Part shown: positions 4,248-43,078 of the stretch, piece after piece
How positions within the stretch are numbered: position 1 is the first letter of the stretch
Layout of the letters: the number at the start of each line of letters is the position of its first letter
NCBI GenBank assembly: GCA_964428355.1
Contig: CAYRYU010000010.1
Location: 39,334-103,333 of the forward strand
DNA length: 64,000 nucleotides
Source of the DNA: an uncultured bacterium
Lineage (GTDB): Bacteria > Muiribacteriota > Ozemobacteria > Ozemobacterales > Ozemobacteraceae
Direction: 5' to 3'
Program-made: the position numbers and the translations under genes
Notes under the pieces: generated by a model
Databases searched by the model: none
The model's input: only the letters and a program-made list of their open reading frames with translations
Told to the model about the DNA's origin: nothing

Positions 4248-4535
4248 TCACAGGCCTTCCACGATGAACGCTTTCGTCCTTGCAGCCCTGCTTCGGAGCT
4301 CCCGGGCCTTCGAATACTCGGGGGAGTTCCACCAGCGGCGTGCCTCCTCCACGCTTCCGAATTCGATCATCACGAGGCGGTTGGGGTTGATGTCCCCCTC
4401 CAGTATCTCGGCTCTTCCGCCTCGAACCAGGGGCTTTCCGCCGTATAGCCTAATGGTGGGCGCCCCTGCAGCCTTGTACTCTTCATAAACCTCACGATCA
4501 AGGACTTCGATATCCAGAATGACGTACGCGGACAT
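4248..4535 (-). CDS. DUF1330 domain protein
   Basis: The ORF track gives 4248..4769(-), but that upstream part overlaps the next gene. The true start MSAYVILDIEV at 4535 has GGGAGG 4 nt upstream. This gives 95 aa with the YEEYKAAGAP...GSVEEARRWWNSPEY motif of the DUF1330 family. Confidence 0.6.
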   Translation of the reverse strand: MSAYVILDIEVLDREVYEEYKAAGAPTIRLYGGKPLVRGGRAEILEGDINPNRLVMIEFGSVEEARRWWNSPEYSKARELRSRAARTKAFIVEGL

Positions 4536-4555
4536 GGTTCCTCCCTTCGGTTCCT

Positions 4556-5350: not shown

Positions 5351-5352
5351 TT

Positions 5353-8300: not shown

Positions 8301-8601
8301 GCCAGAGGTAGACCGCCCGGACGCCCTCGAGGAGGAAGGGGGAAAGCATCGCTGAGGCGGCTATTCCCAGCTCGAGGTTTCCGTAGAGCCTGAGAGGGCT
8401 GGGACTGCGTTCGCCCAACCTTCCGAGAAACAGGCTCCCCAGTCCGAGGCCGGCCATGAAGATGGCGACCACGGCCGAGCATGCCGCGGTCGATGTCCCG
8501 AAAACGAGACGGAGCTCCTGGAACCAAACGACCTGGTAGATCAGGCCGCACATTCCGCTGAGGAACAGAAAGATGGAGGTCAGGACGAGGCCCGGTCTCA
8601 T
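5353..8601 (-). CDS. Fused MFS-type membrane domain / spermidine-synthase-like (PABS) protein with C-terminal helical-repeat region
   Basis: 1082 aa. About 500 aa of polytopic membrane segments (Gly/Ala/Leu-rich helices). A class-I methyltransferase/PABS-like core follows (VFVIGLGTGSTGGWL ... DIVELEERTVEVAS ... DLIVSEPSNPFRAGVSTLFTREFY ... GGVFSQW). Then about 350 aa of Leu/Ala-rich repeats. Confidence 0.7.
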   Translation of the reverse strand: MRPGLVLTSIFLFLSGMCGLIYQVVWFQELRLVFGTSTAACSAVVAIFMAGLGLGSLFLGRLGERSPSPLRLYGNLELGIAASAMLSPFLLEGVRAVYLWLGGTATLGSAGGAAVRGLLSALVLGVPTFLMGGTLPAALKAGQSSKDSGRTGSAVIYGSNTLGAVLGASLTTFWLLETFGLRRSLFLAAGFNLFVGLCARAAGGTGVETPVSPSQAAEASGLPSGKPDQGASQKEETSIWSAVFAAFVTGFAFFLMETVWYRMLAPLLGGSVFAFGMVLASALLGIGLGGFAYSFRSEERIPTWRGFSLTCALEAAALAFPFWLGDGVAILLGLLEPLDGLGFFGKILGWNAVISIVILPAAFVSGIQFPLLLGIVGRGKEGIAQQVGIVYAANTLGAVAGSLAGGFGLIALASATGCWKLAVLGLAGLSLFTAISESPGRRTVRGLSGTIAVLALVGIFLAAEGPTVVWRHSQIGTGREKLAGKTVSQIRNWVNFRKRSVIWEADGKESCVGLTCANGLAFVINGKIDGNALGDAGTQIMLGIVGAILHPDPRRAFVIGLGTGSTGGWLGAVPGMEKVDIVELEERTVEVASRCSQINCEVLRNPKVNLVFGDAREVLLTTPGKYDLIVSEPSNPFRAGVSTLFTREFYQAVIGRLRPGGVFSQWVQAYEVDSETIGIIFATVSSVFPHVEVWQTSACDLLLTCSIDPIRHSLIKVGERLELPLFKEAMWKAWHARGPEGLYGNYLANSSFLRTMGEPARMIETLNTDDHMILEYGFARTLGNPDSVGIQTIGNTARQLGMSKPPLVDGILDPDETGLQPFIQLFCGMDPEQLPDSQDPALTPHIQALKAVLGGDLQGVRRFLPEDGASSTHPVEIALLAQAFADLGDDRARPFLDDIENQLPLEKRLLEARLAFRRGNPDLAAGLLAEAFRTARAPNFTVEPILVQSFNLAVEMGGSSSKSANILLEALGKPLFLFQCEELRKLATLDLAGKVGPVMLARTIEEFGPNLLWNKGFLTQRFLVFQNLSHPMKDQAAKDLQDFLLEGSNNFTDRFFSQISDLGSGNRQGLSTPTAWINERGD

Positions 8602-8711
8602 CGATTTCTCCCCAAATCCGCATTCGGTTCAGGGGCGATTATATCATCCGGAAATCCTGGGCGGGAATTCATTTGCGTCCTGGTTGGCGGGGAGATAGAA
8701 TTCATTCGGAT

Positions 8712-11291: not shown

Positions 11292-11330
11292 GACCCGCCC
11301 TCGGCCGGTTGGCGTGCCTGATCCCCGGGG

Positions 11331-12077
11331 TCAGGTGGCGGAAACCTGCACCAGCATGAAACCGATGTTGTCTTTGCTCGTTTTCAGGGCTTCACGAAAC
11401 AGCAGCTCAGCCGTTTCCTCCGACTTGGGGAGTCCGAACCCCTCTTCCATCCGCTCCACCGGCACGGCACCCCAGAGCCCGTCGGAACATATAAGAAAAC
11501 GGTCTCCGGGCCGGGGTTGCAAGGGTCTGACGAAAACCTTCATCGGCTCGGAGTCTCCCCCGACCACGGCGGAGGTCACGATGTTCTGGGGAAGGTTGGC
11601 CGCAGGGATTCCTCCAGCCGAGGCTTCCTCCACCAGTGAATGGTCCTTCGTAAGCCTGTTGAGATACCCGCCCGTGACCTTGTAGACCCGGCAGTCACCC
11701 ACATTGAATACGAAGCTGTTCGGGCCGGCGAGGAAAAGCCCGGAAAGGGTGGTTCCAAGGCGGATATGTTTCGCTTCTGCGATCCGGTCGAGCCGGGCTT
11801 TCGCCTTCATGAGCAGGGGTTCGAACTGGGCAGGGGAGGTCAGGCTGCCGAACCCGTCCTTCAGGACCCCGAGGACCTCGCCGCTTGCCTCCTCCCCTGC
11901 CTCCTCCCCTCCCATCCCGTCGGCAACGACAAACCAGAGGGGGGAGCCTTCGAACTCCGTTCCTACAACCTTGTCCAGCGAGGTTTGGGAGATCACCTTG
12001 TCGAAGACCAGGAGAGAATCCTCGTTGTTCTTGCGGATCGTTCCGACATTCGTCAAAAAAAACGTCTTTACCTTCAC
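11331..12077 (-). CDS. PP2C-family Ser/Thr protein phosphatase
   Basis: GTG start at 12077 with AGGAGG 5 nt upstream. Motifs VADGMGGEEAGEEAS and ICSDGLWG are the metal-binding signatures of PPM/PP2C phosphatases (Stp/PrpC-like). Confidence 0.8.
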   Translation of the reverse strand: MKVKTFFLTNVGTIRKNNEDSLLVFDKVISQTSLDKVVGTEFEGSPLWFVVADGMGGEEAGEEASGEVLGVLKDGFGSLTSPAQFEPLLMKAKARLDRIAEAKHIRLGTTLSGLFLAGPNSFVFNVGDCRVYKVTGGYLNRLTKDHSLVEEASAGGIPAANLPQNIVTSAVVGGDSEPMKVFVRPLQPRPGDRFLICSDGLWGAVPVERMEEGFGLPKSEETAELLFREALKTSKDNIGFMLVQVSAT

Positions 12078-12104
12078 GATTCCTCCTTCCGGTTGCTCCC
12101 TGCC

Positions 12105-12815
12105 TCAGGACTCCTCCAAGATCTCGATCGTGACCTGGGCGGAAAGGCTCAAAACGTCACCGGGTTTGATGGCCTCCTTTGAAAGGGGGGCGAGGCGGCG
12201 GCCGTTGACGAAAGTCCCGTTGCCGCTTTCCAGGTCCTCCACGAACCAGGTTCCGGCGTCCCACGTGATCTTAAGATGCCTCCTGGAAACGATCTGGAAC
12301 TGGCCAAAAAGCTCCTGCCCAACGGCGTGACGTCCGAGGATGTCATCGGGCTGGATCTCGAACATCCGGTCGCCGAACTTGCAGGTGAGCTTCCGGGGCT
12401 GCTCTCTGACGGTCCTGCCGGAATCGGTGGATCCATCCGCAGGTTCACCTTGGGCGGGAGAAGAGGACGGTTTTCCCTTCTTCCCTTTCTTCTCCGACTG
12501 CGCCTCCACGGCTTTCGCCCTGGGCTGGATTCGCGGAGGCATCTGGCCCACCGCGATCCCGCTGATATCTGCCATGCAGAGGGCGCAGAAAAACTCCTCT
12601 GGCAGATTCGAATGTCCGCAGGACGGGCAGATTTTTATCGGACTCACGGATTCGGAATCCCTCTGAATTTCCGGGGGGGGCGCCCCCTGTCTTGAGGGAA
12701 TTCTATCGCGCACCGAAGGAATTTTCCAGTCAACCATCCTGGACAATTGCATCATGACACAGGTCACTCGTCGGCTCTTGACTTCGCCTTCGAATTCGGG
12801 CATTTTTCGTTCCAT
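12105..12815 (-). CDS. FHA domain protein with N-terminal C4 zinc-ribbon
   Basis: C-terminal GRHAVGQELFGQFQIVSRRHLKITWDAGTWFVEDLESGNGTFVNGRRL is a canonical FHA domain. Upstream lies the zinc-ribbon motif CPSCGHSNLPEEFFCALC, then a Lys/Ser/Pro-rich linker. The true start is probably internal: a GTG preceded by AGAGGGA just before the zinc-ribbon is plausible. It lies 27 bp upstream of the PP2C gene. Confidence 0.7.
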   Translation of the reverse strand: MERKMPEFEGEVKSRRVTCVMMQLSRMVDWKIPSVRDRIPSRQGAPPPEIQRDSESVSPIKICPSCGHSNLPEEFFCALCMADISGIAVGQMPPRIQPRAKAVEAQSEKKGKKGKPSSSPAQGEPADGSTDSGRTVREQPRKLTCKFGDRMFEIQPDDILGRHAVGQELFGQFQIVSRRHLKITWDAGTWFVEDLESGNGTFVNGRRLAPLSKEAIKPGDVLSLSAQVTIEILEES

Positions 12816-12854
12816 GGCCTTCCTGGAATTGTCTCCGTTCCTCAGGAGGTTCCG

Positions 12855-15116
12855 ATGGATTCTGGTTCCCGATCCACCCTTCCGCCCGGGCCGTCTGGAA
12901 CGGGGTTGGAGCGTCGGCTTTCCCCGCCCTTCGTCTTCCTGCGCATGGAGTTCGACACGCTCGAAGGCCTCCTAAAGGAGTTGACCACTTCCCCCGACAA
13001 ATGGAGCAGGGGGAAGGTCCTGATGAACCAGGGCCGGATCCGCGACTGGCTTCGGGAAGCCGGCGACGAGGAAAGAGCCCGGGTCGTCGATGGGGTGGCA
13101 GGTGGAGCGGGGGAAGGAGACCGCAAGCTCTTTCGGCTCATCCATTCGCTGAGCCCGTCCGCTCCCTTTTCCTGGCGTGGAAAACCCTTTTCCCGCGGGA
13201 TGCTGATGGATCTCCTGCGCCGCGGTTCGAGGGCGCAAGCCGGCGAAGATGATCAAGCGCTTCTGGAGCAGGTCTTCGGTGAGGGGATGTTCCGGGAGTA
13301 TCTGTCCCTGAAGAGCTCACTACCCGATGACATTGGGCCGCTGGTTGGATCCGCCCAGGCCATGAGAGCGTCCGAGATCGGTGGGATGCCCATTGCCGAG
13401 CTTTGCAGGCTTGTGCTGGCGATCGGAAACGGGATCCTGGGCCCGGCCGAACCTTTTCGCATACTTCGATCCGCTCTCACTGGGGATCCCGACGCCGCCT
13501 GGATCGTAGGCCTGGTGGGGAAGAACGGATTTTCCGCCTTCGCCGCAAAGAACGGGCTTTGGAGTGGAACGGACGACCCGGCGTGGCGGCTGCTGCCCGA
13601 CCTGGTCATGCCTGCAACGGTCGATCAGAAACTGGTAGGTCTCCTTTGTGAGGCGGGAGAAGCCCCGGTGAAGGCCCTGAGGGAGCTACCCGGATTCGAC
13701 CGTCTTCTTCGCGGGATCCTTCTTCGCACCCTCGGGGAGGCGGAGATAGCCCGGGATGATTTCCAGCTTCTCCCATCCTCTCCATGGTTCGACGACCTCC
13801 TCCGGGCCGCTTTCCAGGTTCCCGAGGGGAAGGGGGTCCGGGAATTCCTCATCGCCTACGTTTGCAGGAAAGAGATTCACCGGGACTGGGAAATCCTTGA
13901 CCCCTATCTCCTCCCTCCGTTCTTCAACGACTTCCGGAATGGAAAACCCGTAACGGAGAAGCAGGTCGAGATGATACGGGAAGTTCTCAAGAACCCCGGG
14001 ATCCTCATTCCCACCACGGCGGTGGTTTCCTCCTGGAAAGGGCTTCAGAGCTTTCTCGAGGGGGAATCGGATTCGGCGACGGTTGTTGAATGCTTTGAAG
14101 ACCTTGCGATCATCAAGAAGGCCTACGCCCGGAAAAGGGAAAGATACTTCCAGGTGATGGCCGCCTCCGTTGGATTGGGTGTCGCGTCCATCTCGGCGAT
14201 GCTTTTGGGCCCAACTTATCCTCCAATCGTGATCTCGGGTCTTTTGTTTGCTTCTGGGGTCCTGATTCCGGGACTGGTCTGGATCCCCTATTTCCGGAGG
14301 CTTTGGGAGCGGTTCCGGCCCAAAGGGGGGACCGAGGCCGGGAATGCCTTCGACCCTCCTCACTCCTCTCCCTGGAACATCTTCACGGTCACGGGTATGG
14401 CCTTCTGCATTTCGGGCTTCGTTCTATACGGTGTATTTCTCGGATTCCTGCTCACGATGACTCACGACTCCTCCGTTTTCCTGCTCAGGACAGGTTGTGA
14501 GCTCCGGCTCATCGTGCCGGGCATGGATCCGGTTCTTCATTCCTTCCAGCAGCGAAACCCTGAAGCCCTGAGGTATCTTCTCCACCGGTTCGGGGAAAAC
14601 TCCGCTCTTGCCGGTGAGGAGCGCAAAAGGCAGCTTCTCTCGGAGGCAATTGCGGGAAAGTGGAAACCGGGAATCGAGATCCTTCTTTCCTCGACCAATC
14701 TTTCCCAGAAACGGAATGGCGACTGGAGGATTCTTTTCGGTGCCATCCGGTCCAAGGATGTCGAGATCGTCAGGGAGGTCATGAGATGGGGAATCGATCT
14801 CAAGCTCGTCAGTCCGGTCGAAGATAGCGCACTCCACGAGGCGGTCATGCAGGGGGCTCCCGAGATGGTTCGGTTCCTGCTCGGGAAAGGCCTCGAGGTG
14901 AATGCGGTTAACGTTGAGGGCCAGACCCCCCTTCATTATTGCCTTCCCCTTGCGGGTCGGAACCCCTCCCAGGCGGTCGAGGTTGCCCGGATTCTCCTTG
15001 CTGCGGGCGCTGACAAAAGACTCCGGGACCGTAGGGGGCAGACGCTCCTCGGCTGGATCGAGCTGACCCAGCGGAGAGATAACGGAGGAATACTTTTGAA
15101 AGTCCTGGAAGAATGA
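12855..15116 (+). CDS. Ankyrin-repeat protein carrying the same uncharacterised module as the two kinases, with central TM helices
   Basis: The ORF track starts at TTG 12747. ATG 12855 (MDSGSRS) has AGGAGG 7 nt upstream. The N-terminal roughly 430 aa align with the kinase C-terminal modules: WSRGKVLMNQGRIRDWLREAG, GFSAFAAKNGLWSGTDDPAW, LLPPFFNDFRNGKPV. There are two or three predicted TM helices (GLGVASISAMLLGPTYPPIVISGLLFASGVLIPGLVWIPYF; FTVTGMAFCISGFVLYGVFLGFLL). The C-terminus has at least 3 ankyrin repeats (ALHEAVMQGAPEMVRFLLGKGLEVNAVNVEGQTPLHYC...ILLAAGAD). Confidence 0.7.
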   Translation: MDSGSRSTLPPGPSGTGLERRLSPPFVFLRMEFDTLEGLLKELTTSPDKWSRGKVLMNQGRIRDWLREAGDEERARVVDGVAGGAGEGDRKLFRLIHSLSPSAPFSWRGKPFSRGMLMDLLRRGSRAQAGEDDQALLEQVFGEGMFREYLSLKSSLPDDIGPLVGSAQAMRASEIGGMPIAELCRLVLAIGNGILGPAEPFRILRSALTGDPDAAWIVGLVGKNGFSAFAAKNGLWSGTDDPAWRLLPDLVMPATVDQKLVGLLCEAGEAPVKALRELPGFDRLLRGILLRTLGEAEIARDDFQLLPSSPWFDDLLRAAFQVPEGKGVREFLIAYVCRKEIHRDWEILDPYLLPPFFNDFRNGKPVTEKQVEMIREVLKNPGILIPTTAVVSSWKGLQSFLEGESDSATVVECFEDLAIIKKAYARKRERYFQVMAASVGLGVASISAMLLGPTYPPIVISGLLFASGVLIPGLVWIPYFRRLWERFRPKGGTEAGNAFDPPHSSPWNIFTVTGMAFCISGFVLYGVFLGFLLTMTHDSSVFLLRTGCELRLIVPGMDPVLHSFQQRNPEALRYLLHRFGENSALAGEERKRQLLSEAIAGKWKPGIEILLSSTNLSQKRNGDWRILFGAIRSKDVEIVREVMRWGIDLKLVSPVEDSALHEAVMQGAPEMVRFLLGKGLEVNAVNVEGQTPLHYCLPLAGRNPSQAVEVARILLAAGADKRLRDRRGQTLLGWIELTQRRDNGGILLKVLEE

Positions 15117-15186
15117 CTTCGAAAGGGGCGCCGGGGACGGTTGCAATCGCGGTCGAAATTCCTTATCGTGTCATGGGAGGGTGGTA

Positions 15187-16806
15187 ATGAGCACTGCCAT
15201 AGTTTTCGTTCCCGCCGCCAGCTCTTTCTTCCCCGGTGCCGCGGCAGCGATGACCGGGGGGGTGGGCTTTCCCATCCTGCTTGGCGCTGCCCTCGGCCTG
15301 TTGATTTTGAGCCGCGTCATGGAAGAGGCAGGGAAGGCGGAGTGTTCTTGCGGCAGGCAGAACAGGGACTCCCTGAACGCCATGTTCCGCCAGGTCGAGG
15401 CTTCCGTTCAGAAGGTCGTTTCCGAGGTTCTCGAGCGGGCGGGCCGTACTCCGCTGAGCAATCGCAGCCGCGAAGCCCTCCAGCGCGAGATCGAGCTGAT
15501 CCGTGGGACAATGATTCCCAAGTGCCTTTCCGATCTTCGGGACGGTGTTCTCGGCGAACGCGAGGTCAGGGCGGTCGTTGATAAGCTCGAAGGGCTCGAC
15601 CTGCTCCTGGTCCAGCACCGCAGCGGGTTCACCCAGTCAAGGTCACGCGCCGATTTCCTGTCCGGGAAAATCGCAAGTCTCCTCCCCGATCTGACCTCGC
15701 GTTACTCGGGATCGGGGAAAGAGGATGCGCTGAAGGCCAGATTCGAGGAAATCCGGGGCATTCCGGAAGAGGATATCGAGGAAAGGATCGGTCTTCTCGA
15801 AGAGTTCCTTGGCCGGATCGAATGTATCTCCGACGGGAAGGTCCTGAGGAAGGTGGTGGACAGGCTTCTCGCCGGAACGCGGATTCCCGGTGTCGCCGCG
15901 ACCGGCCCGGGACCGGCCCCCATTCTCCCCCCTGACGAAGGCCTCGACCGGATGACACGGCTGAAGACCCTTCTCAACGACCTTGCCTTCTACCACCAGA
16001 AGCTTGGGGCCGAGTTCCCCGAACTGCTCGATGACCAGATGCAGAAGCTGGTTTCCGAGGCAAGCGGTTCCGACCATCTCCAGCGGGTTTCCGCGGTCCG
16101 GGACCAGGTGAAGCTGGTCTACCAGAAAGCCCATTCCCGGATGGTCCTTTCATCCTTCTTCAAGGACCGCCTGATCGCCCTTCGCGCAACCCTTTCCCCC
16201 GACAATCCCCTCACCGGGAGACTTGGAAGGGCGATCGAGGAAGCCGTGGTCGAGCGCGGGCTTTTCCAGGAGCTTTCCGAAGCGGTGGAAAAGCATCACC
16301 TCGGGGAGTTCGATGAGGAGATGAAGCTGGGCATCAGGGAAAAGGTTTCTTCCGCTCTCGATCGTCTTAATTACGTGGTGATCGATGATGACGAGCGGAA
16401 GGAGATTGTAGACCGCCTCTCCGAATCGAGGATGGCCCTTCTCAACACCAAATACGATGATTACAAACTGCTTCTTCGCATGGGGAAGGATGATGCCCTT
16501 TCGATCCGGTTGGTCAGGGTCGTTCAGAATCTGAAGGAACGGGAGAACATCTCCGAGTTCCAGAAACAGAAGGATACTGACCTCAAGAACGAGTGGTGTC
16601 ACAACGTCGATCTGCTTCGCGAGCACCTCGAGGCAATGGGAATCATCGTCAACCAGAAACTCCGCCTCGAGGACGATGTCCAGTATCTTACCATCGAGCA
16701 GCTTGAACAGCAGAAGGTCGATACCTCCCGGTTGAGAAAAACCACCCCCGATGCGGTCAAGAAGGGCCAGGCGCGACAAAGGAAGCGCGGGGAAAAGAGC
16801 GGATGA
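15187..16806 (+). CDS. Uncharacterised protein with N-terminal hydrophobic anchor and long alpha-helical region
   Basis: ATG 15187 with GGGAGG 6 nt upstream; the ORF track lists GTG 15181. N-terminus MSTAIVFVPAASSFFPGAAAAMTGGVGFPILLGAALGLLILS is a TM/signal segment. The remaining roughly 480 aa are Glu/Leu/Arg/Lys-rich with no motif I recognise. Its stop overlaps the start of the kinase at 16803 (ATGA). Confidence 0.55.
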   Translation: MSTAIVFVPAASSFFPGAAAAMTGGVGFPILLGAALGLLILSRVMEEAGKAECSCGRQNRDSLNAMFRQVEASVQKVVSEVLERAGRTPLSNRSREALQREIELIRGTMIPKCLSDLRDGVLGEREVRAVVDKLEGLDLLLVQHRSGFTQSRSRADFLSGKIASLLPDLTSRYSGSGKEDALKARFEEIRGIPEEDIEERIGLLEEFLGRIECISDGKVLRKVVDRLLAGTRIPGVAATGPGPAPILPPDEGLDRMTRLKTLLNDLAFYHQKLGAEFPELLDDQMQKLVSEASGSDHLQRVSAVRDQVKLVYQKAHSRMVLSSFFKDRLIALRATLSPDNPLTGRLGRAIEEAVVERGLFQELSEAVEKHHLGEFDEEMKLGIREKVSSALDRLNYVVIDDDERKEIVDRLSESRMALLNTKYDDYKLLLRMGKDDALSIRLVRVVQNLKERENISEFQKQKDTDLKNEWCHNVDLLREHLEAMGIIVNQKLRLEDDVQYLTIEQLEQQKVDTSRLRKTTPDAVKKGQARQRKRGEKSG

Positions 16807-19394
16807 CCCCAGTGGATGACAACGAAAAGACCCGGATACTCGTTGATCCTGCCGCGCCGAGGTCAGGCGACGAGGACCTTCCCGATGAAAGCCACCCCAC
16901 CGGGCCGGGAACCGGGGCCACGGGTGGTTCCGGCACCGGTGGGACCTTCCGGGGCTGGAGTATTGTCCGGAATTTTCCCGCCCAGGGTGGGGAAGCCGAT
17001 ATTTCCCTCATCGAGAAGGCGGGGGAGCAGCGGATCCTCAAGCTCTACAGGTACGGTATCACACCGAAAAAGGAAGTGTTCGAGGCTGTAGCGTCGCTCG
17101 GGGTCAAGCACCCCGCAGGCTTCGTCAGGCTTTTCGAGTTCGGTCTCGACCCCGGAACCAACTGCTTTTTCGAGATCGACGAGTTCGTTTCCGGGGGAAC
17201 GCTCGCGGACCATCTGGTCTCCGGGCGCCTCTCCGAGGACGAGATCGAAGCCCTCTGCCGGCAACTGGTTCCCTCCCTCGAAGCGCTTCACGAGCATGGA
17301 ATTCTGCACCTCGACCTGAAACCCGGAAACCTGCTCGTCCGGAACAGGGACCCCCTCGAAGTCGTCCTCTCGGATTTCGGCCTTTCCTCGATCTATGACG
17401 CGGCTCTTTCCCAGAAATTCACCCAGACCAAGGGGACCAGCTTGTACCAATCTCCGGAAAGTGTTACTGGAGCGGTGAACCCGAAATCGGACTGGTGGTC
17501 GTTCGGGATCATGGTCATGGAACTTCTGATGGGCAGGAACCCCTTCGATGGCTTGCAGGCACAGGTGATCTTGTACCAGCTGACCACCCAGGGGGTGGAG
17601 ATTCCCCAAACGGTCTCCGGCCGATGGCGGAACCTCCTCATGGGCTTGCTGACCCGGAATCCAGAAAAACGCTGGGGCGGGGAACAGGTCCGCGCCTGGT
17701 TGGGCGGAGCGACGGTCGAAACCGGGTATCAGGAGGAGATGTCGCAAGCCAGGGAAAAGCCGTCCGCGTCAACCTTTTCAGCTTCCTCGCAGTACCGGCG
17801 TCTGGGAGTGCCCTTTACGTTCCGCGGTGTCGCCTTTAACGCCCTCGAAGACCTGGCTGGGGCGATGATCGCCTCGAGGGATGCATGGGAGGACGGGAAA
17901 GCCGATGTGGCGCGGGGAAAGCTCGCCGAGTGGCTCGAGCAGAACGGCGATAGCGATCGCGCGCGGCAGGTCCGGGGGTTGATGGATGAATCCCCAGATC
18001 CGGATCAGCTTCTGTTCAGGTTTGCGATCTATTTTCGTGCCGATCTTCCTTTCGTCTGGAGGGGCGTCCCCCTGGACGATGAGCAGTTCCGGGGGCTTCT
18101 GAAAAGTTACTCCCGGGACCTCGATCCTGGAGACAAATTCCTCGTGGAAGGGGTTTTTTCCGGGGAGCTCTTCCAGGAGTATGTGAAACTGACCGGAGGC
18201 ACCCTCGGAAAGGTCGACCCGTTTCTCAGGATCGCCAAGGGCATGAAAGGGACCGACCTCGAGAAGGAGCCCGTTTCGGCGCGGGTGGAGATTCTCCGGC
18301 GGGCGATAGACGGGGACTTCGCCGGAAGCAGGGCACTTTCCACACTGAAGGTTGCCCTCGGCGGTGCAGGGCATGCAGCCGAAGAAATCTTCCTGATGAT
18401 CCAGAAGAAGGGGTTCAACACATTCGCCCAGAAAGCTGCCTTGTGGCAGCCAGGGGACCAGGACCTCTGGAACATGGTCATGAAGGTCTTCCTGAAGAGC
18501 GATCATCTCAGGAACCTGAACTTCGCGACCTTCTTCCAACACTCCGAATCGGTTCTCGCCGCTGCCAGGAAAGACCCCACGATCAGGGATTTCATCGTCC
18601 GCGTTTTTGGAAGGGCCAACATCGATCTTGGCCTGGTAAAGCAGATCCAGGATTTTTCCGAAATCCAGCCCTGGGTCGAACCTTTGATCCGTTCGGTCTA
18701 CAATCTTCCATCCGGCGAGAAACTCAAGATCTGTCTTGGCAACCTCATGGTGGCCGCCCCCCTCAACGCCAGGTGGGACGAGATATCGGGCCGATACATC
18801 ATCCCGCCTTTCCTGAACGACCTCCGGAACGGCAAGGTCATCTCGCAGGGAAACCTGAAACTTGCCCGACAGGTGATCGACCAACCTGATCTCCTTCCCC
18901 TCAAGTCGCCCGATTTTTCCAACTGGGCCGAGTTCGTGAGTCTCATTCAAACCCCAGCCGAGATCAACCCCGAGTCGATCGAGTATCTCGATTTCCTTCG
19001 CCGGGAAAGGGACCGCCTTTCCATGGGCCAGCGCAGGACATGCTTCGAAAGCATCGTTCGATGGGTGATCTACCTCCTTGCTGGTTTTTTCCTGCTCTCC
19101 CTGACCTCTCCCCCCCGTCGATACAGTGGCGATGCACGCGAGAGAAGTTGCTACGCCAATATGCGGACGATTCTCGGGGCGGTCGAGATGTACAACATGG
19201 ATCATTCCCAGATGATGAGCGGTGTCGAGGATCCCGATACGTTGAACACGCTCCTGAGGTCGAACTACCTTCGTAATCAGATCACGAGGCCTGTTCCCGG
19301 GTGCCGATACTCCAATGACGGCGATCTGACCGGCTTGGGGGCGGTAACCTGCGAGATTCACGGGACCGTGGATGACCGTAGCACCAACCGCTGA
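16803..19394 (+). CDS. Hanks-type Ser/Thr protein kinase (non-RD) paralog with shared C-terminal module, TM helix and extracytoplasmic tail
   Basis: Motifs: AQGGEADISLI...QRILKLYRYG, HLDLKPGNLLV, DFGLSS, SPESV. The C-terminal module is homologous to the 8712 and 12855 proteins: GFNTFAQKAALWQPGDQD, IIPPFLNDLRNGKV. A TM segment (WVIYLLAGFFLLSLTSPP) follows. The 90-aa tail beginning RERSCYANMRTILGAVEMYNMDH resembles the post-helix segment of GspG/DUF1559-type pseudopilins. Confidence 0.8.
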   Translation: MTPVDDNEKTRILVDPAAPRSGDEDLPDESHPTGPGTGATGGSGTGGTFRGWSIVRNFPAQGGEADISLIEKAGEQRILKLYRYGITPKKEVFEAVASLGVKHPAGFVRLFEFGLDPGTNCFFEIDEFVSGGTLADHLVSGRLSEDEIEALCRQLVPSLEALHEHGILHLDLKPGNLLVRNRDPLEVVLSDFGLSSIYDAALSQKFTQTKGTSLYQSPESVTGAVNPKSDWWSFGIMVMELLMGRNPFDGLQAQVILYQLTTQGVEIPQTVSGRWRNLLMGLLTRNPEKRWGGEQVRAWLGGATVETGYQEEMSQAREKPSASTFSASSQYRRLGVPFTFRGVAFNALEDLAGAMIASRDAWEDGKADVARGKLAEWLEQNGDSDRARQVRGLMDESPDPDQLLFRFAIYFRADLPFVWRGVPLDDEQFRGLLKSYSRDLDPGDKFLVEGVFSGELFQEYVKLTGGTLGKVDPFLRIAKGMKGTDLEKEPVSARVEILRRAIDGDFAGSRALSTLKVALGGAGHAAEEIFLMIQKKGFNTFAQKAALWQPGDQDLWNMVMKVFLKSDHLRNLNFATFFQHSESVLAAARKDPTIRDFIVRVFGRANIDLGLVKQIQDFSEIQPWVEPLIRSVYNLPSGEKLKICLGNLMVAAPLNARWDEISGRYIIPPFLNDLRNGKVISQGNLKLARQVIDQPDLLPLKSPDFSNWAEFVSLIQTPAEINPESIEYLDFLRRERDRLSMGQRRTCFESIVRWVIYLLAGFFLLSLTSPPRRYSGDARERSCYANMRTILGAVEMYNMDHSQMMSGVEDPDTLNTLLRSNYLRNQITRPVPGCRYSNDGDLTGLGAVTCEIHGTVDDRSTNR

Positions 19395-37166: not shown

Positions 37167-37841
37167 TCAGAATTCCTGATCGAATGAATCGGCCGCTTTT
37201 CCCCGTGGCGCGTTCGAAGGTAGGATCGGAACCGAGGGCTGATTGCCATAACCACCGGGTTGTGGCTGGTACGCAGGGACGAGGGAGTTCATATGGTTAA
37301 CCAACTGATCCCTGATCTGGGCTCCCCGAAGTTGGCTGTCCACGCCCAAACCAGCTCCCCGGGCACGATAGAGCATCTGCATCATCTTCTCGTCAGCCCC
37401 CGGAGGAAGCTGCGTCGAGATATAGGCTTCTTGCCCAAGAGGGGTCAGATACACCTGATCGGGGGAACCGGGTAGGAAAGCTCCCGGGGTCATCGGGACC
37501 GGACTTATCGCCCCAGGGGGATTCACCAGGGTCGACGGGACGTCGGTCATCTGGCGCCGATGCGCCGCCATCGCCAGATCCCAGGTGTAAACGTCAGGCT
37601 CGAGGACCACGGGAAGGTTGGTCCGGGGAATCCCATGGACGAACTTCCTTTTCTCGAATTGGAACGCGTCCGTTTCGTTCCTTTTGTAGAGGGACTCCTT
37701 GATCATGTGTTCCGAGTAATGGAGCGTTTCCAGGGTCCGGCGGGTTGGACCATCGGTTACGGCCCTGGCCGGAACGATCGCCCAGATGAAAGTGAAGAAC
37801 ATCAGCAGTGCCAGGCAACCAACAACGATTCGTGATCTCAT
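37167..37841 (-). CDS. Secreted hypothetical protein with Pro/Gln-rich C-terminus
   Basis: Start moved to MRSRIVVGCLALLMFFTFIWAIVPARA (37841), which has GGAGGG 5 nt upstream; this gives a signal peptide. No known domain recognised. Confidence 0.45.
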   Translation of the reverse strand: MRSRIVVGCLALLMFFTFIWAIVPARAVTDGPTRRTLETLHYSEHMIKESLYKRNETDAFQFEKRKFVHGIPRTNLPVVLEPDVYTWDLAMAAHRRQMTDVPSTLVNPPGAISPVPMTPGAFLPGSPDQVYLTPLGQEAYISTQLPPGADEKMMQMLYRARGAGLGVDSQLRGAQIRDQLVNHMNSLVPAYQPQPGGYGNQPSVPILPSNAPRGKAADSFDQEF

Positions 37842-37974
37842 TGCACCCTCCAAATCAGCCTTGAACAAGTGGCGATTTGGCAAGGAAATGTGTCGCCGTT
37901 TTCCTGGTTTGTCAAGGGAAAATCGAAAAACCGGAAAGTCGAGTTTCCACAAGGCCCGCTGAGCTTCCCTTCCA

Positions 37975-38008
37975 AAATGAAAAACCGGGTCGCCATATGG
38001 CGGCCCGG
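37975..38008 (-). terminator. Rho-independent terminator of the hsp20 operon (minus strand)
   Basis: Hairpin ccgggtcgcca-ta-tggcggcccgg (37985-38008; 11-bp stem with 1 mismatch). On the minus strand it is followed by TTTTTCATTTT (the plus-strand A-run 37975-37984). Sits about 28 nt downstream of the hsp20 stop at 38036. Confidence 0.5.
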
Positions 38009-38035
38009 ATGAGGAGGGGAGGGAGAGTGACAGGT

Positions 38036-38434
38036 TCAGGAGACGGAAACTTCGATCTGTCGGGGTTTCATGGCTTCAGAGCGGGGAAGGGACAGGGTCA
38101 GGACCCCGTTCTTCAGGTCGGCCGTGATCTTCTCCCGGTCGACGGTGTCGGTGATCTCGAACTGCCGGAAGAAACTCACGGGTTCGAACTCCTTCACCTG
38201 ATAGCCCTTTTGAGGGGTGCTTTCAACCTTTCCTTCGATCGTGAGAAGATCATCTTCGACCGTGATCTTGAGCCCGGACTTCTCGACTCCGGGGAGATCG
38301 GCAACCAGAGACAGTCCATCGGCGGTCTCAAAAATATCGACGTCCGGGGAAGCGAACCGCTCACGGGTTCGCGTCACTTCCCGCTGAACCGCGGGGGCCT
38401 CGGTCTTGATCGTGGGAACGTTGTTCTCTGACAT
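38036..38434 (-). CDS. Hsp20/alpha-crystallin family small heat-shock protein
   Basis: The ACD core is ...DIFETADGLSLVADLPGVEKSGLKITVEDDLLTIEGK..., with C-terminal KNGVLTLSLPR. The ORF track gives 38036..38440; MSENN at 38434 has better SD spacing. Confidence 0.85.
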   Translation of the reverse strand: MSENNVPTIKTEAPAVQREVTRTRERFASPDVDIFETADGLSLVADLPGVEKSGLKITVEDDLLTIEGKVESTPQKGYQVKEFEPVSFFRQFEITDTVDREKITADLKNGVLTLSLPRSEAMKPRQIEVSVS

Positions 38435-38527
38435 GTTCATACCTCCTGTCGTTCAGGGTTGAAGATTGGGGGGCGCAATAGTCGCCGCTTGTCCGGACGG
38501 CGGATTTGCCCTTGCCAGTCCGCTTGC

Positions 38528-38974
38528 TCAGTTGACCTTCACCTGGATCTGGTGGGGTTTTGACTCCTCGGCTTTCGCGAGTTTGATGGTCAGGATCCCG
38601 TTCTTGTATTCGGCCGAAACCTTCTCAGGGTTGATTTCCAACGGGAGTTCGAAGGTCCGGGAGAATTTTCCTTCCCCCCTTTCGCACCTATGGAAGCTTT
38701 CAGCCGGGATTCCGGATGGGGACTTTTCTCCACTGATGGAAAGCTGGTTTTTCAGCGCGTTGACTTTTAGACTGGAAGACTCGATCCCCGGGACAACCGC
38801 TTCGATGAAGAGGTTCTCCTCATCGGCCCACGTGTTCACCAGTGGATAGATCCTGGAGGAGAGCCCGGGAAGGAAAGCCAGGGGGGCTCGTTTCCCGAAC
38901 CCGAACTCCCTCGAAACCTGGGAGAGCTGGTTCTGAAGGTTTTCCATCTCTTTCAGGAAGTTCCAGACGTTCAT
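38528..38974 (-). CDS. Hsp20/alpha-crystallin family small heat-shock protein (second, tandem)
   Basis: IYPLVNTWADEENLFIEAVVPGIESSSLKVNALKNQLSISGEK ... KNGILTIKLAK. AGGAGG 6 nt upstream of the ATG at 38974. Confidence 0.8.
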   Translation of the reverse strand: MNVWNFLKEMENLQNQLSQVSREFGFGKRAPLAFLPGLSSRIYPLVNTWADEENLFIEAVVPGIESSSLKVNALKNQLSISGEKSPSGIPAESFHRCERGEGKFSRTFELPLEINPEKVSAEYKNGILTIKLAKAEESKPHQIQVKVN

Positions 38975-39018
38975 ATTTTTCCTCCTTGTGGCTTGGAAAT
39001 TTGGTTCATCGATAGAAA

Positions 39019-39035
39019 AGCAACATCCGTGCCAA
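39019..39035 (-). promoter_or_regulatory. Sigma-54 (RpoN) -24/-12 promoter upstream of the tandem hsp20 genes
   Basis: Minus-strand read of 39035-39019 is TTGGCACGGATGTTGCT, i.e. TGGCAC-N5-TTGC, a perfect match to the sigma-54 consensus. It lies about 50 nt upstream of the hsp20 ATG at 38974. Confidence 0.6.
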
Positions 39036-39073
39036 TTCGCAAAAGCGGCTTGGAATCAAAGCTTTTGGGGAAA

Positions 39074-39117
39074 ACGTTGCATCGGGACGAAAACTGCTAC
39101 GTTGCCGCAACGTTGCA
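39074..39117. promoter_or_regulatory. Three ACGTTGC half-sites including a perfect 15-bp palindrome ACGTTGCCGCAACGT; candidate enhancer-binding-protein UAS
   Basis: Read directly from sequence: acgttgc at 39074-39080. The palindrome acgttgccgcaacgt lies at 39099-39113, and a third overlapping half-site acgttgca at 39110-39117. These sit about 40-80 bp upstream of the -24 element, where bacterial enhancer-binding proteins bind. Confidence 0.35.
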
Positions 39118-39165
39118 ATCACCGCGAAAACGACGGTCGCTCGGGCCTCATCTTTTCGCGAGGGA

Positions 39166-40059
39166 TCACTCGAGGAACAGTTCCGGGGTGATGACCGAAT
39201 TTCCCTGGTACGGATGGGGCGCCTGGAATGAGTGGATCATCCTGAAACGGCACCGGGAGGGGACTCCCACATCACGCATGATCAGCATTCCCGGGTCATA
39301 CCATCGGCCGGTCTCCCGAAACTGCCGGAATCGCCAGGCAACGATATCGGTCACGTCGATCGTGACCTCGGCGGATCCGGATGCGGGAAGAGTCGCCGTA
39401 GAATGGGGTTCATACGAGAAATCCCCCCCGGTCGTTTCCCATGGCATCTCTCTCGTTGCCATGAACCAGGTGCATCCCCGATCGTATGACTGATGGCGTC
39501 CCCACTTTCCGTTCCCTTCCTCGAACCGTCGGGCCAGAGGGTATACGACGATAGGAACCGGTTCCCCGCAATCCGGTCCTGGGGCGAGGCGCAGGACGAG
39601 TGTCGCCCTTTCGGGGATGAACTCCGTGATCGGGATTCCGGAATCGCGGAAGGCTTTGGGAATATCGAAGCAGATCAGGTAACGAAGGCCGTTCGAGGAA
39701 TAATAGGAACCGACCGGGCCGGAAGGGTCGGCTCCGGAATTCTGCTCCGCGGCCTGGGAAGGATGTCTGTCGTTGGGGCTCCGGATGAAGGCGTCGATGC
39801 CCTCCCTGACAACCACCTGACCTTGATGGGATCGCTCCGGAATTGTCGGCCAGGAAATTCCGCGGAGACAGTTCCAGCAGGTCCTGTCCATTTCGCTTAC
39901 GGGCGCGGAACAGAAAGAACAAGAGGCTCCCCAGGCAGTCGCGATTCCCAGGTAAAGGAGGAGAACGACGACGATGGGAGCAGCGGAAATCCAGGTTCCG
40001 GGTCGTGAGAACCCGCTCTCCGGCTGAGAAAGGGTTTTCGGGAATCCCGGGGTGTTCAA
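39166..40059 (-). CDS. Membrane-anchored protein with DNRLRE-like beta-sandwich domain
   Basis: TTG start; the stop of the upstream HEAT gene overlaps it (TTGA). N-terminal TM helix PIVVVLLLYLGIATAWG. ATLVLRLAPGPDCGEPVPIVVYPL...GNGKW and SAEVTIDVTDIVAWRF resemble the conserved strands of DNRLRE-type carbohydrate-associated domains. Confidence 0.4.
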   Translation of the reverse strand: MNTPGFPKTLSQPESGFSRPGTWISAAPIVVVLLLYLGIATAWGASCSFCSAPVSEMDRTCWNCLRGISWPTIPERSHQGQVVVREGIDAFIRSPNDRHPSQAAEQNSGADPSGPVGSYYSSNGLRYLICFDIPKAFRDSGIPITEFIPERATLVLRLAPGPDCGEPVPIVVYPLARRFEEGNGKWGRHQSYDRGCTWFMATREMPWETTGGDFSYEPHSTATLPASGSAEVTIDVTDIVAWRFRQFRETGRWYDPGMLIMRDVGVPSRCRFRMIHSFQAPHPYQGNSVITPELFLE

Positions 40060-42929
40060 GGGTTTTGCCGGGACTCGGTCTGGATCTTCTCCAGCATCTT
40101 CTCGGCATACATGCCTTGCTGGCTCTTCGGGTCCACGAGGGAGAGGATTCCGGAAAACACCTCCGATGCCTCCCTGTAGGCCCGTCGCCGGAAAAAGACC
40201 ATCCCCAGATTGAGTTTGAGCGTGATGTCGCGGGGTTCAACCGAAGTGGCCATCATGTAAGCCTTGGTTGCGTCTATCAGTTTTCCGGTCTTGTAGTAGA
40301 TGTTACCCAGCGCCGAGTAGACATAGGGCGCTTTGGAATTGATCTTCAGTGCCGCCTTGAGTTCCCTTTCCGCTTCCGCCATCGCGCCGAGCCGCATTTG
40401 CCGCATCCCCTCGTCGAAGTGCTTCTTGAACTCCTCCTGGCGCCTTCTGGCGGTCGTCAGGGTGTCCTCCATCTTGCGGAAATCCTCCGGGGTCATTATC
40501 TGCCGGAGGCTCATCAACGCTTCCCGGCTGATGAAAGGATCGGGGTCGCGCAATATTTCGAGAAGCGGAGCCTTGGCTTCCCCGGCCTTGAGGGCGCCCA
40601 GGGCCTTGACCGCGGCGCGGCGCTCATCCCAGGGGTGTTTCGCTTTCGTCAGCTCGATCAGGACTGGAATGATGGCAGGGTTTTTCAAGGCGGCGAAAGA
40701 CTCGATGAAAGCCGCCCGCGATTCGGGGTCGGATTCACGGTCGAACCGCTCCTTGAGGACCTTGTAGCTGTCGATGTGGCCGATTTCCCCCAGGGCGCGA
40801 ATGACCGGGATCTTGAGATCGAGAGTTTCCTCGTCGAGGATCCGGAGGAGGTCGGGGACGGCACGCCTGACGCGCATCTTTCCCAAAATTCCAATCACGA
40901 AATGCTTGAGGGTCCAGGATTCCCGGCCGAGGGCCATGATCAGGCCCGGAACCGCCTTGTCGTCCCCGATCGTCCCGAGGGCTTTGGCGGCGGCAATCGC
41001 CAGGTCTTCGTCGTCGTCGTCCAGGGATTCGAGCAGCATATCAACTGCGGCGGGGGAACCCAGGATTCCGAGCGCTTCAGCTGCCGCGATCCTGGCGGGC
41101 CAGTGTTCGTCCTTGAGATGTGGGATCAGGACCTCCACGTCCTCCGGGCCCCCTACCTGGGAGACCGCGAGGATCGCCTGCCGCCTGATCTCGTTGGATT
41201 TGCTTTCCAGGAGCGGTCTGATTGCCTTGATCGCGAGGGGCTTGAACCCCTCCAGGGTCCGCCGGATCCAGAAACTGTAGTGTTCATCATGCTTCCCAAG
41301 CGCCTGGCACAGGCGGGGAACCACGAGTTCGCCGGGCATGTTCCGGAAGGTGCTGACCACGCTTTCCAGAAGCCGCCGCTTGTCGGTCTTGAAAAGGGCG
41401 AACAGGTCGTCGAGGATGGCGGGGCCATAGTTGGCAAGAGCTTTCTGCGCGGCATTCCGGATCGCTTCGGAGGGATCCTCGAGCGCGCGGAAAAGGAGGG
41501 GCAGAGAAATGTTCGAGCCGATCCTTCCCAGGGCCTGGAGGACCCAGTAGCGAACCTCGTAATCGGCTTCGGTCGCGAGGTTGGTCAGCTCGATGAGCGC
41601 ATTCTCGCCGAAGGTTCCCAGGATCTCGGCCGTGGTCTTCCGGATGTTCCATGAGCGGTCCTTCAGGAGTTTGACGAGCTGTTGGAATATCCCGGCAGGG
41701 CGAATGTCACCAATTGCCCGGAGTGCCCAGTAACGGACATCCTCCTCCCCCGAGTTGAGGGCCTGGAGAAGCGGCTGAACCGCCTGGGGCCCGAACCTCA
41801 TTACCGCCCGGCATGCTTCCCGCCTGACGACCCAGGATGGGTCGATGAATCGCTCGATCAGGAGTGGAATCGAATCGGGGTTCTGGAAGCTGCCCAGGGA
41901 CTGGACCGCGGCCATCCGGATCTCGGAATCGGGATCGGACATGAACTTCCTGATCTCTCCATGTGCGCTTTCCTCGTGCATCTGCCCGAGGATCTTGATC
42001 GCCCAGAACCGTCGTTCCTTGTCCTGGCCTTCGAGGGCCGTGGTAAGGGGATGGATCGCTTCCGCACCCATTTCCGAGAGTGCCCGCGCCGCCAACGCCC
42101 GGCCCATCCAGTATTCGCTGGAAAGGGATTCCATCAGGAAGGGGATCGAATGGTTGCCGAAATCCTTCAGGATGTCGTAGATCAGGTCACGAACCTGCTC
42201 CGATGGCTGGGAAAGCGCTTCGAACAGCTGGCCGACGACGTTGGGATCGCCGATTTCCCTGATTGCCCGCAAAGCGGCGATACGGACCCCGGTTTCGGGA
42301 TCTGAGAGCTTGCCCACGAGATCCTTGGTGTAGGCTTTGTCACGGAGATGGCCCAGGCAAAGGATCGCCCAGAACCGGGTGTTGTTGTCAGGGTCGTCGA
42401 TTGCGGCCCGCAGGGCTTCCGCCGCCACCTTCCCCATCCGGTTGACGGCCATGGCCGATCGGGAGCGGATCTTCCAGGATTTGTCGCCGAACTGGCGGAT
42501 GAGAAGTGCAAGGCTCAGCTTGGGAGCTTTCGCGAGCGATTTCGCGGCCATAACCGCGACTCCGTCCTTGGGATCCCTCATGAGGTCGAAAAGACAACGG
42601 ACGGCTTCCTCGTTTTCGAGGCCCGAAAGCGCATAGGCGACACGGAGCCGGACGTCGGCCGATCTGTCACGGGAAAGAGGGATCAACATTTCGGAAAGAT
42701 TCGTCGGCCGGATCACGGAAATCGCTTCGATGGTGGCGCACCGGACCTCTTTCGACCGGTCGTTCAGCACTTCCTTCAAGGGATCCACCGCGAGCGGGGT
42801 CTTCAGCTTTCCGAGCGACTTGACCGCTTTGAGCCTCTTGGTGATCAGGGTGGATTTCAGATCGGTGACCAGATCCTCGAGCTCGCGCTGCACCTGGCAT
42901 TCCCCCTTTATTCTGAATGATTCAGCCAT
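40056..42929 (-). CDS. HEAT (PBS-lyase-type) repeat protein with C-terminal TPR repeats
   Basis: Start at MAESFRIK (42929). More than 20 repeats of the DxxVRxxAxxALGxIG pattern (e.g. DPDNNTRFWAILCLGHL, DPETGVRIAALRAIREIGDP, DSEIRMAAVQSLGSF). C-terminal TPR-like KAALKINSKAPYVYSALGNIYYKTGKLIDATKAYMMA. Confidence 0.7.
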   Translation of the reverse strand: MAESFRIKGECQVQRELEDLVTDLKSTLITKRLKAVKSLGKLKTPLAVDPLKEVLNDRSKEVRCATIEAISVIRPTNLSEMLIPLSRDRSADVRLRVAYALSGLENEEAVRCLFDLMRDPKDGVAVMAAKSLAKAPKLSLALLIRQFGDKSWKIRSRSAMAVNRMGKVAAEALRAAIDDPDNNTRFWAILCLGHLRDKAYTKDLVGKLSDPETGVRIAALRAIREIGDPNVVGQLFEALSQPSEQVRDLIYDILKDFGNHSIPFLMESLSSEYWMGRALAARALSEMGAEAIHPLTTALEGQDKERRFWAIKILGQMHEESAHGEIRKFMSDPDSEIRMAAVQSLGSFQNPDSIPLLIERFIDPSWVVRREACRAVMRFGPQAVQPLLQALNSGEEDVRYWALRAIGDIRPAGIFQQLVKLLKDRSWNIRKTTAEILGTFGENALIELTNLATEADYEVRYWVLQALGRIGSNISLPLLFRALEDPSEAIRNAAQKALANYGPAILDDLFALFKTDKRRLLESVVSTFRNMPGELVVPRLCQALGKHDEHYSFWIRRTLEGFKPLAIKAIRPLLESKSNEIRRQAILAVSQVGGPEDVEVLIPHLKDEHWPARIAAAEALGILGSPAAVDMLLESLDDDDEDLAIAAAKALGTIGDDKAVPGLIMALGRESWTLKHFVIGILGKMRVRRAVPDLLRILDEETLDLKIPVIRALGEIGHIDSYKVLKERFDRESDPESRAAFIESFAALKNPAIIPVLIELTKAKHPWDERRAAVKALGALKAGEAKAPLLEILRDPDPFISREALMSLRQIMTPEDFRKMEDTLTTARRRQEEFKKHFDEGMRQMRLGAMAEAERELKAALKINSKAPYVYSALGNIYYKTGKLIDATKAYMMATSVEPRDITLKLNLGMVFFRRRAYREASEVFSGILSLVDPKSQQGMYAEKMLEKIQTESRQNP

Positions 42930-43078
42930 CTCGATCGCACCTCTTGTCGAAGTGAAAGTATAGCACATATCCCGAGAGGGGGCACCGCCTTTCCGGTGGG
43001 ACCTCCCGGGTTCCGCAATGCTTGACCGTTTTCTTCCCGACAGCTAGAATCACCCCATCGATTAACGGGAGGTTTGTC

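Follow-up and report, generated by a model that had tools for sequence, protein, structure and literature searches.

A probable sigma-54 control region with tandem upstream units before a small heat-shock operon of an uncultured Ozemobacteraceae bacterium

In this work, we analyzed a 64-kb stretch of DNA from an uncultured bacterium of the Ozemobacteraceae (GenBank assembly GCA_964428355.1, contig CAYRYU010000010.1, positions 39,334 to 103,333) and found that a 191-bp intergenic stretch within it probably represents a complete sigma-54 control region for an operon of two small-heat-shock genes, hsp20-1 and hsp20-2. The full 64 kb (58.5% G+C) is termed the window; all coordinates are those of the window, and the operon is read on its minus strand, with the control region running from 39165 to 38975. 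Two kinds of cis element are found here, a perfect -24/-12 promoter and tandem 10-bp units upstream of it. Both are rare by chance, and both are conserved among orthologous loci in sequence, position and helical phase. Sigma-54 control of this operon had been put forward in an original prediction made from the letters of the window, and our data support it, because the -24/-12 element is kept at the same distance from the ATG in four orthologues retrieved by homology, which goes beyond a single consensus match.

The -24/-12 element and its conservation

The promoter element, TTGGCACGGATGTTGCT, lies at 39019..39035 on the minus strand and contains the 15-mer core TGGCACGGATGTTGC (39034-39020). 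It agrees with YTGGCACG-N4-TTGCW at 12 of 12 specified positions, and its GG (39033-39032) and GC (39021-39020) doublets are exactly 10 nt apart. The pattern TGGCAC-N5-TTGC, predicted at 39035-39019 about 50 nt 5′ of the hsp20 ATG, is present at these positions and is not repeated in the window, even if a single mismatch is tolerated; the precise distance from the -12 C (39020) to the hsp20-1 ATG (38974) is 46 nt. For the exact motif TGGCACG-N4-TTGC, 0.02 occurrences are expected per 64 kb, and only 2 of 100 dinucleotide-preserving shuffles contained a match. A relaxed GG-N10-GC scan was also used to look for other sigma-54 promoters in the window, and the next two candidates, at 44226 (plus strand) and 28162 (minus strand), were rejected: each scored 10/12 and each is inside a gene of the opposite strand.

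To place this element in context, we compared it with other loci, which are labeled by L-numbers. Four orthologous pairs of 148 and 132 aa were obtained by protein homology alone, with Hsp20 identities to the window of 61% (L005/6/7), 56% (L012), 52% (L008/9) and 47% (L003); the last of these, from a Candidatus Riflebacteria metagenome-assembled genome (MAG), is the closest relative of Hsp20-1 in the species-representative genome collection. Each of the four pairs is preceded by TGGCA[CT]G-N4-TTGC, whose -12 C is 47-53 nt away from the ATG. Over a larger set this distance is 47-58 nt (L003, L005, L008, L012, L016, L027, L042, L045) or 71-78 nt (L051, L033, L055). The element is kept in every orthologous locus encoding a 148-aa first Hsp20, and the pair of 148 and 132 aa is itself kept in L003, L005, L008, L012 and L014, among others. 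Overall, a perfect -24/-12 element at a fixed distance is found in about ten distinct but related uncultivated lineages of wide GC range, some of which have a divergent upstream gene, and 171 kb of hsp20-bearing loci, searched on both strands, contain no sigma-54 match with a Shine-Dalgarno sequence and a start codon behind it other than that of hsp20. Apart from this element and the upstream units described below, the upstream regions are not alignable. A short T-run at approximately -38 to -36 (window approximately 39044-39046), just 5′ of the -24 element, is shared by most orthologues.

The element is also confined to one part of the family tree. In a sister clade (L010/11, L013, L014) the orthologous two-gene hsp20 operon (46-48% identity, first protein 151-152 aa) is without any -24/-12 element and shares a TTGACA-type promoter, CTTGACAAG...GTGACTAAC (TTGACA, approximately 16 nt, TAACTT). 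This forms a promoter-like block, CTTGACAAG-N9-10-(G/A)TGACTA(AC), at approximately 9900-10000 in L010, 2120-2190 in L013 and 560-640 in L014. In L010/L011 and L013, dnaJ and a MerR_2 (HspR-like) gene immediately precede the hsp20 pair; in L010, groES-groEL and one more hsp20, the third, are close by as well. The sigma-54 promoter is thus a conserved, clade-specific feature, and as such the best available evidence that the organisms carrying it have sigma-54.

Other promoter types were sought as well. No sigma-70-like promoter was found in 37700-39400; CIRCE (TTAGCACTC-N9-GAGTGCTAA) and HAIR (CTTGAGT-N7-ACTCAAG) elements gave zero matches in the window with up to three mismatches; and no convincing sigma-32-type promoter (CTTGAAA-N13-17-CCCCAT) was seen upstream of hsp20, the best scoring 9/13 at -265. 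These results bear on the proposal that the sigma-54-like motif is non-functional and that hsp20 is read through from the HEAT-repeat and 297-aa genes upstream, or served by an unrecognized housekeeping promoter. The upstream genes do share the strand of the operon, synteny places the HEAT-repeat gene upstream of hsp20 in L042 and L045 and, at a greater distance, in L005, and the promoter types of this lineage are uncharacterized. Nevertheless, we regard this proposal as highly improbable, given a chance expectation of 0.02 per 64 kb, the absence of a sigma-70-like site from 37700-39400, and the persistence of a perfect element at fixed distance across about ten lineages, including those in which the upstream gene is divergent.

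Tandem upstream units

Seven copies of GCAACGT are found in the window, four of them clustered at 39074-39116, while GCAACGT-N4-GCAACGT is expected only 0.01 times per window. The ACGTTGC half-sites and the 15-bp palindrome ACGTTGCCGCAACGT that had been noticed here are present as described, the palindrome at exactly 39099-39113. This palindrome consists of the right half of one 10-bp unit and the left half of the next. Unit 1, GCAACGTTGC (39107..39116, minus strand), is a perfect 10-bp palindrome centered at approximately -103.5 from the predicted start, and unit 2, GCAACGTAGC (39096..39105, minus strand), is centered at approximately -92.5; together they form a 21-bp tandem which contains the 15-bp palindrome. 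A third unit, GCAACGTTTT (39071..39080, minus strand; center approximately -67.5), matches in its left half alone, is weaker, and is not conserved in position. The suggestion that the palindrome is the upstream activating sequence (UAS) therefore stands in substance, but it is the tandem of 10-bp units that is conserved, whereas the spacing that creates the palindrome is not, the cores being 10, 11 or 12 bp apart in different loci.

We took an unbiased approach to the significance of these units, using the five homology-retrieved upstream regions from -170 to -29 and 2000 dinucleotide shuffles. AACGT was the most recurrent 5-mer across the five regions. ACGT was observed 11 times against 3.07 expected, and pairs of ACGT 10-12 bp apart occurred in 3/5 regions; for both measures, none of the 2000 shuffles reached as high. 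GTTTTC/GAAAAC recurs in 4/5 regions. In 157 kb of non-redundant DNA examined, matches to the two-unit pattern were confined to hsp20 upstream regions.

When each locus is anchored at its -12 C and a unit is taken as approximately G-N-R-ACGT-Y-N-C, the positions of the units agree closely. To the window centers of -103.5, -92.5 and -67.5 correspond -104.5 and -94.5 in L005, which has three weaker CAAACGA-type copies in addition; -117.5, -105.5 and -94.5 in L012; and -115.5, -103.5 and -93.5 in L003. In L008 the centers are at about -137.5 and -128.5, with one more unit upstream. Equivalents of unit 1 lie at -103.5 to -106.5, and those of unit 2 at -93.5 to -95.5, in L003, L005, L012, L016, L027, L042 and L045, while third or extra units take varying positions (L003 -115.5, L012 -117.5, L016 -72.5).

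A metagenome scan with the pattern GNRACGT-N3-5-GNRACGT-N50-80-TGGCAYG-N4-TTGC returned 50 loci, eight of which are hsp20 orthologues of 34-61% identity (L016, L027, L033, L042, L045, L051, L055, L062); having been selected by the pattern itself, these eight inform on target-gene enrichment and gap length only and are not independent proof of the motif. Although a 31-nt range was permitted, the gap between UAS and promoter is 66-67 nt in five of them and 76 nt, exactly one helical turn more, in the other three; the window has 64 nt and L003 65 nt. Such gap lengths show conserved position and, in the 76-nt loci, conserved helical phase, as would be expected of an enhancer that acts by DNA looping. 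The core shared by the loci can be written as GCRACGTYGC-(N0-2)-GCRACGTYRCAG. With regard to a broader regulon, the scan gave no other recurrent target with hsp20-type units, and the other recurrent families differ in unit sequence and GC content.

Taken together, the comparison of these loci supports a putative UAS of two or three 10-bp units (about GCRACGTYGC), 10-12 bp apart, located near -105/-94 or shifted by whole helical turns. An enhancer for a bacterial enhancer-binding protein (bEBP) is characterized by repeated or dyad-symmetric sites about 80-150 bp 5′ of the -24/-12 element, which orthologous promoters share in sequence, position and helical phase, and the units show these features. 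Between UAS and promoter, an IHF-like sequence, AATCAAAGCTTTT (39054-39066, plus strand), differs by one mismatch from WATCAANNNNTTR; as a conserved IHF site it was rejected, since it occurs in the window only and in 0/11 other loci.

The 15-bp palindrome at 39099-39113 might alternatively terminate or attenuate transcription of the 297-aa gene upstream (39166-40059) and have no role in protein binding. Our terminator scan did flag a minus-strand site, GTTGCGGCAACGTAGC with AGTTTTCGTC behind it, and the region as RNA can form a hairpin of -16.9 kcal/mol. The U-run, however, is inside the stem and does not trail it, the z-score is only -1.7, and the scan gave 2 terminator-like sites where 2.5 are expected in shuffles. 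Moreover, the units persist in L012 and L008, in which a divergent upstream neighbor needs no terminator, and a spacing of 10-12 bp preserves tandem sites, not one hairpin. We consequently attach hardly any weight to this alternative and continue to treat the units as a candidate UAS.

Proposed activation of the operon

Sigma-54 promoters need an enhancer-binding protein bound to upstream palindromic sites. In the mechanism we propose, sigma-54 RNA polymerase would form a closed complex on the -24/-12 element (39035-39019), unable to open alone. A bEBP encoded elsewhere in the genome, with the AAA+ domain (GAFTGA) and the DNA-binding domain of a sigma-54 activator, would most likely bind the tandem units at approximately -104 and -93, with a weaker third site at approximately -68. 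The two main units face the same side of the DNA, a helical turn from each other, and might accommodate one dimer on successive major grooves, or adjacent dimers that nucleate a hexamer. The bEBP would oligomerize on the units, helped by the additional weaker ones, contact the polymerase by DNA looping and use ATP to open the promoter. Transcription would then run from approximately 39008 through hsp20-1 and hsp20-2 and stop at a terminator at 38008-37974. Binding of the units by a bEBP, its oligomeric state and the presence of rpoN are what we infer from this arrangement; the inducing signal may be heat or proteotoxic stress, judged solely from the Hsp20 chaperone products.

The transcription unit so delimited had been recognized as a tandem hsp20 operon, and both open reading frames (ORFs) are confirmed as Pfam HSP20. 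Hsp20-1 is an alpha-crystallin/Hsp20 family protein of 148 aa (38528..38974, minus strand; PF00011, E=5.9e-19), and hsp20-2 (38036..38434, minus strand; PF00011, E=9.6e-20) encodes 132 aa on record, or 134 aa from an in-frame ATG at 38440. Their Pfam scores, 68.5 and 71.0 bits, compare with a gathering cut-off of 20.8, and the two proteins are 33% identical. Apart from one NCBI contig and two short Logan contigs (runs SRR12133403/4), no record contains the exact Hsp20-1 protein. An internal promoter or structure in the 87-nt spacer between the genes was considered and rejected, as the spacer folds no better than shuffles and orthologue spacers are only 18-31 nt. The hairpin and T-tract predicted after the second gene are likewise present: an intrinsic terminator at 37974..38008 (minus strand), beginning 28 nt past the hsp20-2 stop, has a GC-rich stem of 9 bp, interrupted by one mismatch and closed by a 4-nt loop (38008-37985; CCGGG-C-CGCC/AUAU/GGCG-A-CCCGG), followed by the U-tract UUUUUCAUUUU (37984-37974). 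Its centroid fold is -17.5 kcal/mol (z = -2.5); a simple terminator scan passed over it because of the internal stem mismatch.

At the 5′ end, the predicted leader (38975..39008, minus strand; start at approximately 39008 ± 2, placed by the -12 element) carries the Shine-Dalgarno sequence AAGGAGG at 38987-38981. RNA thermometers in 5′ leaders control many bacterial small-heat-shock genes, and temperature control could in principle reside mainly in such a structure here, with the promoter giving basal transcription. The leader can indeed pair UUUCC with the Shine-Dalgarno region, but this fold reaches only -6.6 kcal/mol (z = -0.65), five orthologous leaders fold no better than shuffles, and an alignment of nine leaders is without any consensus base pair. 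Scans of the window for tRNAs and Rfam families gave no match. A ROSE, fourU or other Shine-Dalgarno-masking hairpin was thus rejected, there being no conserved occluding hairpin in these leaders, and we think it most improbable that temperature is sensed mainly at this level.

Several points weigh against the bEBP and sigma-54 mechanism. The transcription start at approximately 39008 and the expression of the operon are predictions from sequence, and the trans-acting parts, rpoN and the bEBP, are assumed. We searched six frames of all DNA examined for GAFTGA/ESELFGH and RpoN-box motifs, and large ORFs with Pfam; the window, the adjoining 10 kb past its 5′ end (L065) and the surroundings of hsp20 loci of this type yielded neither rpoN (or an RpoN box) nor a bEBP. 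This agrees with the expectation, already expressed in the original prediction, that the cognate bEBP is outside the window. In addition, classical bEBP dyads are 15-18 bp in length, longer than the 10-bp units, and how a protein would be placed on such units with their 4-bp palindromic core is uncertain. The units of L008 are more degenerate and approximately 33 bp, or about three turns, further upstream; the eight metagenomic hsp20 loci were selected by pattern; and the genes upstream of the operon are co-directional, so that some read-through transcription is possible.

These points lead to the rival that has to be taken most seriously, namely that the -24/-12 promoter is real but that the units are bound by another protein, such as a repressor or anti-activator, a ribbon-helix-helix-type regulator or a nucleoid protein, while the bEBP acts in solution or from a site elsewhere. 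In favor of this, the units measure only 10 bp, are arranged in tandem and have a 4-bp palindromic core; they resemble MetJ operators (AGACGTCT met-boxes) more than classical bEBP dyads; and at none of the hsp20 loci of this type was a linked bEBP found. On the other hand, tandem short repeats are known for bEBPs, as in Nla28 of Myxococcus and the three NorR sites. The units also lie at -94/-105, or whole helical turns further out, in phase with the promoter, which is the classical position and behavior of an enhancer, and they are too far upstream to hinder polymerase. We therefore consider a non-bEBP binder improbable, although less so than the alternatives discussed above, and retain a bEBP as the most likely occupant of the units.

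Beyond this, the hsp20 pair may be the dedicated, perhaps sole, target of a bEBP that senses protein-folding stress. Such a sigma-54-based heat-shock circuit would replace sigma-32, HrcA or HspR in Riflebacteria-like lineages and would imply a new bEBP specificity for tandem ACGT-core decamers. This is a speculative extension, which we consider unlikely as a whole. In our literature search, no bEBP-hsp20 system having this UAS came to light, and neither the UAS nor a dedicated activator is described in any of the papers found.

Related arrangements and known systems

The metagenome scan also returned other sigma-54 arrangements. Sixteen loci (L017, L018, L026, L028, L031, L032, L040, L048, L053, L056, L057, L058, L060, L061, L063, L064) are high-GC contigs (0.60-0.67) in which the inverted repeat CGTTACG-AAA-CGTAACG (G[CT]GACGTTACGAAACGTAACGCG) lies approximately 50-75 nt 5′ of a perfect TGGCACG-N4-TTGC. 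Genes 3′ of these promoters encode RecA (PF00154, E=2e-132), SSB (PF00436) and a 312-314 aa DUF1570 protein with a HEFAHE motif; in L061, recA starts 35 nt past the -12 C, and in L063 the recA strand encodes an FHA-GAF-AAA+-HTH_8 bEBP approximately 4 kb 5′ of recA. This family looks like a sigma-54-dependent regulon of the DNA-damage type, possibly in Planctomycete-like bacteria, a host guessed from DUF1570. We found no description of this recA/ssb/DUF1570 arrangement in a literature search. The bEBP specificity for ACGT-core decamers suggested above, if real, might be related to the one that the sigma-54/ACGT-repeat arrangement before recA, ssb and the DUF1570 gene of these Planctomycete-like soil contigs implies.

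In three further loci (L024, L047, L054) the near-palindrome GGGACGTTCGCCGGAACGTCCCC and TGGCATG-N4-TTGC precede the gene of a DUF6600 protein of 750 aa, whose long tail is rich in Ser and Arg; this gene is predicted to be another conserved sigma-54 target. In L046 (approximately 5700-7343), a bEBP gene (ESELFGHEKGAFTGA) is immediately followed by a UAS of two ACGT units (GTGACGTTCAGAAACGT) and then by a sigma-54 promoter, which precedes a gene of 401-405 aa with no family assigned. This locus physically links an activator with an ACGT-type UAS and could reveal the type of DNA-binding domain that reads such units. A different association is seen in L004 (Terriglobia MAG JAIQEW01; 3314-6330, 7945-9567), where a 765-aa PAS-PAS-GAF-AAA+-HTH_8 sigma-54 activator is encoded directly 5′ of, and on the same strand as, an hsp20 gene whose product is 31% identical, with groEL 1.6 kb further on; the 195-bp spacer of L004 has no strict -24/-12 match and only a weak AGGGGT-N5-TTGC.

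Regarding the gene neighborhood in the window, a 970-aa HEAT/TPR-repeat protein (40056-42968, minus strand) is the conserved upstream neighbor of the hsp20 operon. Close homologues end right before the UAS in L042 and L045 (in L045, within the upstream 3.5 kb), and the L005 copy (1047-3914) is 6 kb upstream. The intervening 297-aa protein (39166-40059, minus strand) has no Pfam match, and a frame-disrupted homologue lies directly 5′ of hsp20 in L051. Elsewhere in the window (8673-19394, plus strand), Ser/Thr protein kinases of 872 and 863 aa flank a 789-aa ankyrin-repeat protein and a 541-aa protein without a Pfam match. FHA-type bEBPs, the type found in L063, are typical partners of Ser/Thr protein kinases.

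What is gained is a well-supported cis-regulatory model, comprising promoter type, enhancer units, phasing and terminator, for a stress operon of an uncultivated lineage; it implies the presence of sigma-54 in these organisms and its use in expressing chaperones. The GCRACGTYGC tandem, approximately 66 or 76 nt 5′ of a -24 element, is a motif with which both the regulon and its activator could be sought in complete genomes. Promoter type was also evidently swapped between orthologous hsp20 pairs of sister clades, sigma-54 in one and TTGACA-type, beside dnaJ and a MerR-family gene, in the other; compared with the HspR/HAIR- or sigma-70-type operon of the sister clade, the window thus has the same hsp20 pair but a different promoter type.

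Classical bEBP enhancers include those of NtrC at glnAp2, NifA (TGT-N10-ACA), NorR (three GT-N7-AC sites), PspF and Nla28 of Myxococcus (tandem 8-bp sites). In these systems, multiple activator sites 80-150 bp 5′ of the -24/-12 element and on one face of the helix aid assembly of the hexameric ATPase. The window is similar in having multiple sites upstream of -24/-12 on one helix face, but differs in that its units are only 10-12 bp apart, center to center, with no conserved IHF site between UAS and promoter. To our knowledge, the unit sequence, about GCRACGTYGC with an ACGT core, matches none of these bEBP motifs.

The closest precedent at the level of the target genes is ibpAB of E. coli, likewise a tandem Hsp20-family pair in whose transcription sigma-54 polymerase is involved. 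Sigma-54 at ibpB has been confirmed by chromatin immunoprecipitation (PMC2831329), and the ibpB sigma-54 promoter is attributed there to earlier work (Kuczynska-Wisnik et al. 2001, as cited in PMC2831329). The main E. coli promoter, however, is a sigma-32 promoter upstream of ibpA, the weak sigma-54 match (TGGTAAATGGTTTGC) serves ibpB only, and no dedicated activator or UAS is mentioned for it (PMC2831329). In contrast, the window has a perfect sigma-54 promoter and a conserved UAS before the whole operon and no sigma-32-type promoter. Outside Proteobacteria, a 2025 survey predicts sigma-54 promoters before GroEL/ES, DnaK/J, GrpE and IbpA-family (COG0071) genes of Planctomycetota and Bacteroidota (PMC12316311), which is comparable to our findings with respect to the IbpA-family genes. 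As far as the consulted parts of that survey go, its predictions are genome-wide and concern promoters only, with no UAS or activator described, whereas in the lineage of the window the arrangement was seen before the hsp20 pair alone. Rhodopirellula baltica has a tandem hsp20 pair as well, RB10279/RB10283, for which heat induction is reported (PMC2754498). The principle of sigma-54-controlled small heat-shock genes is accordingly already established, and the advance over these systems is incremental; new here are the lineage, a perfect promoter placed before the whole operon, and a newly defined enhancer motif.

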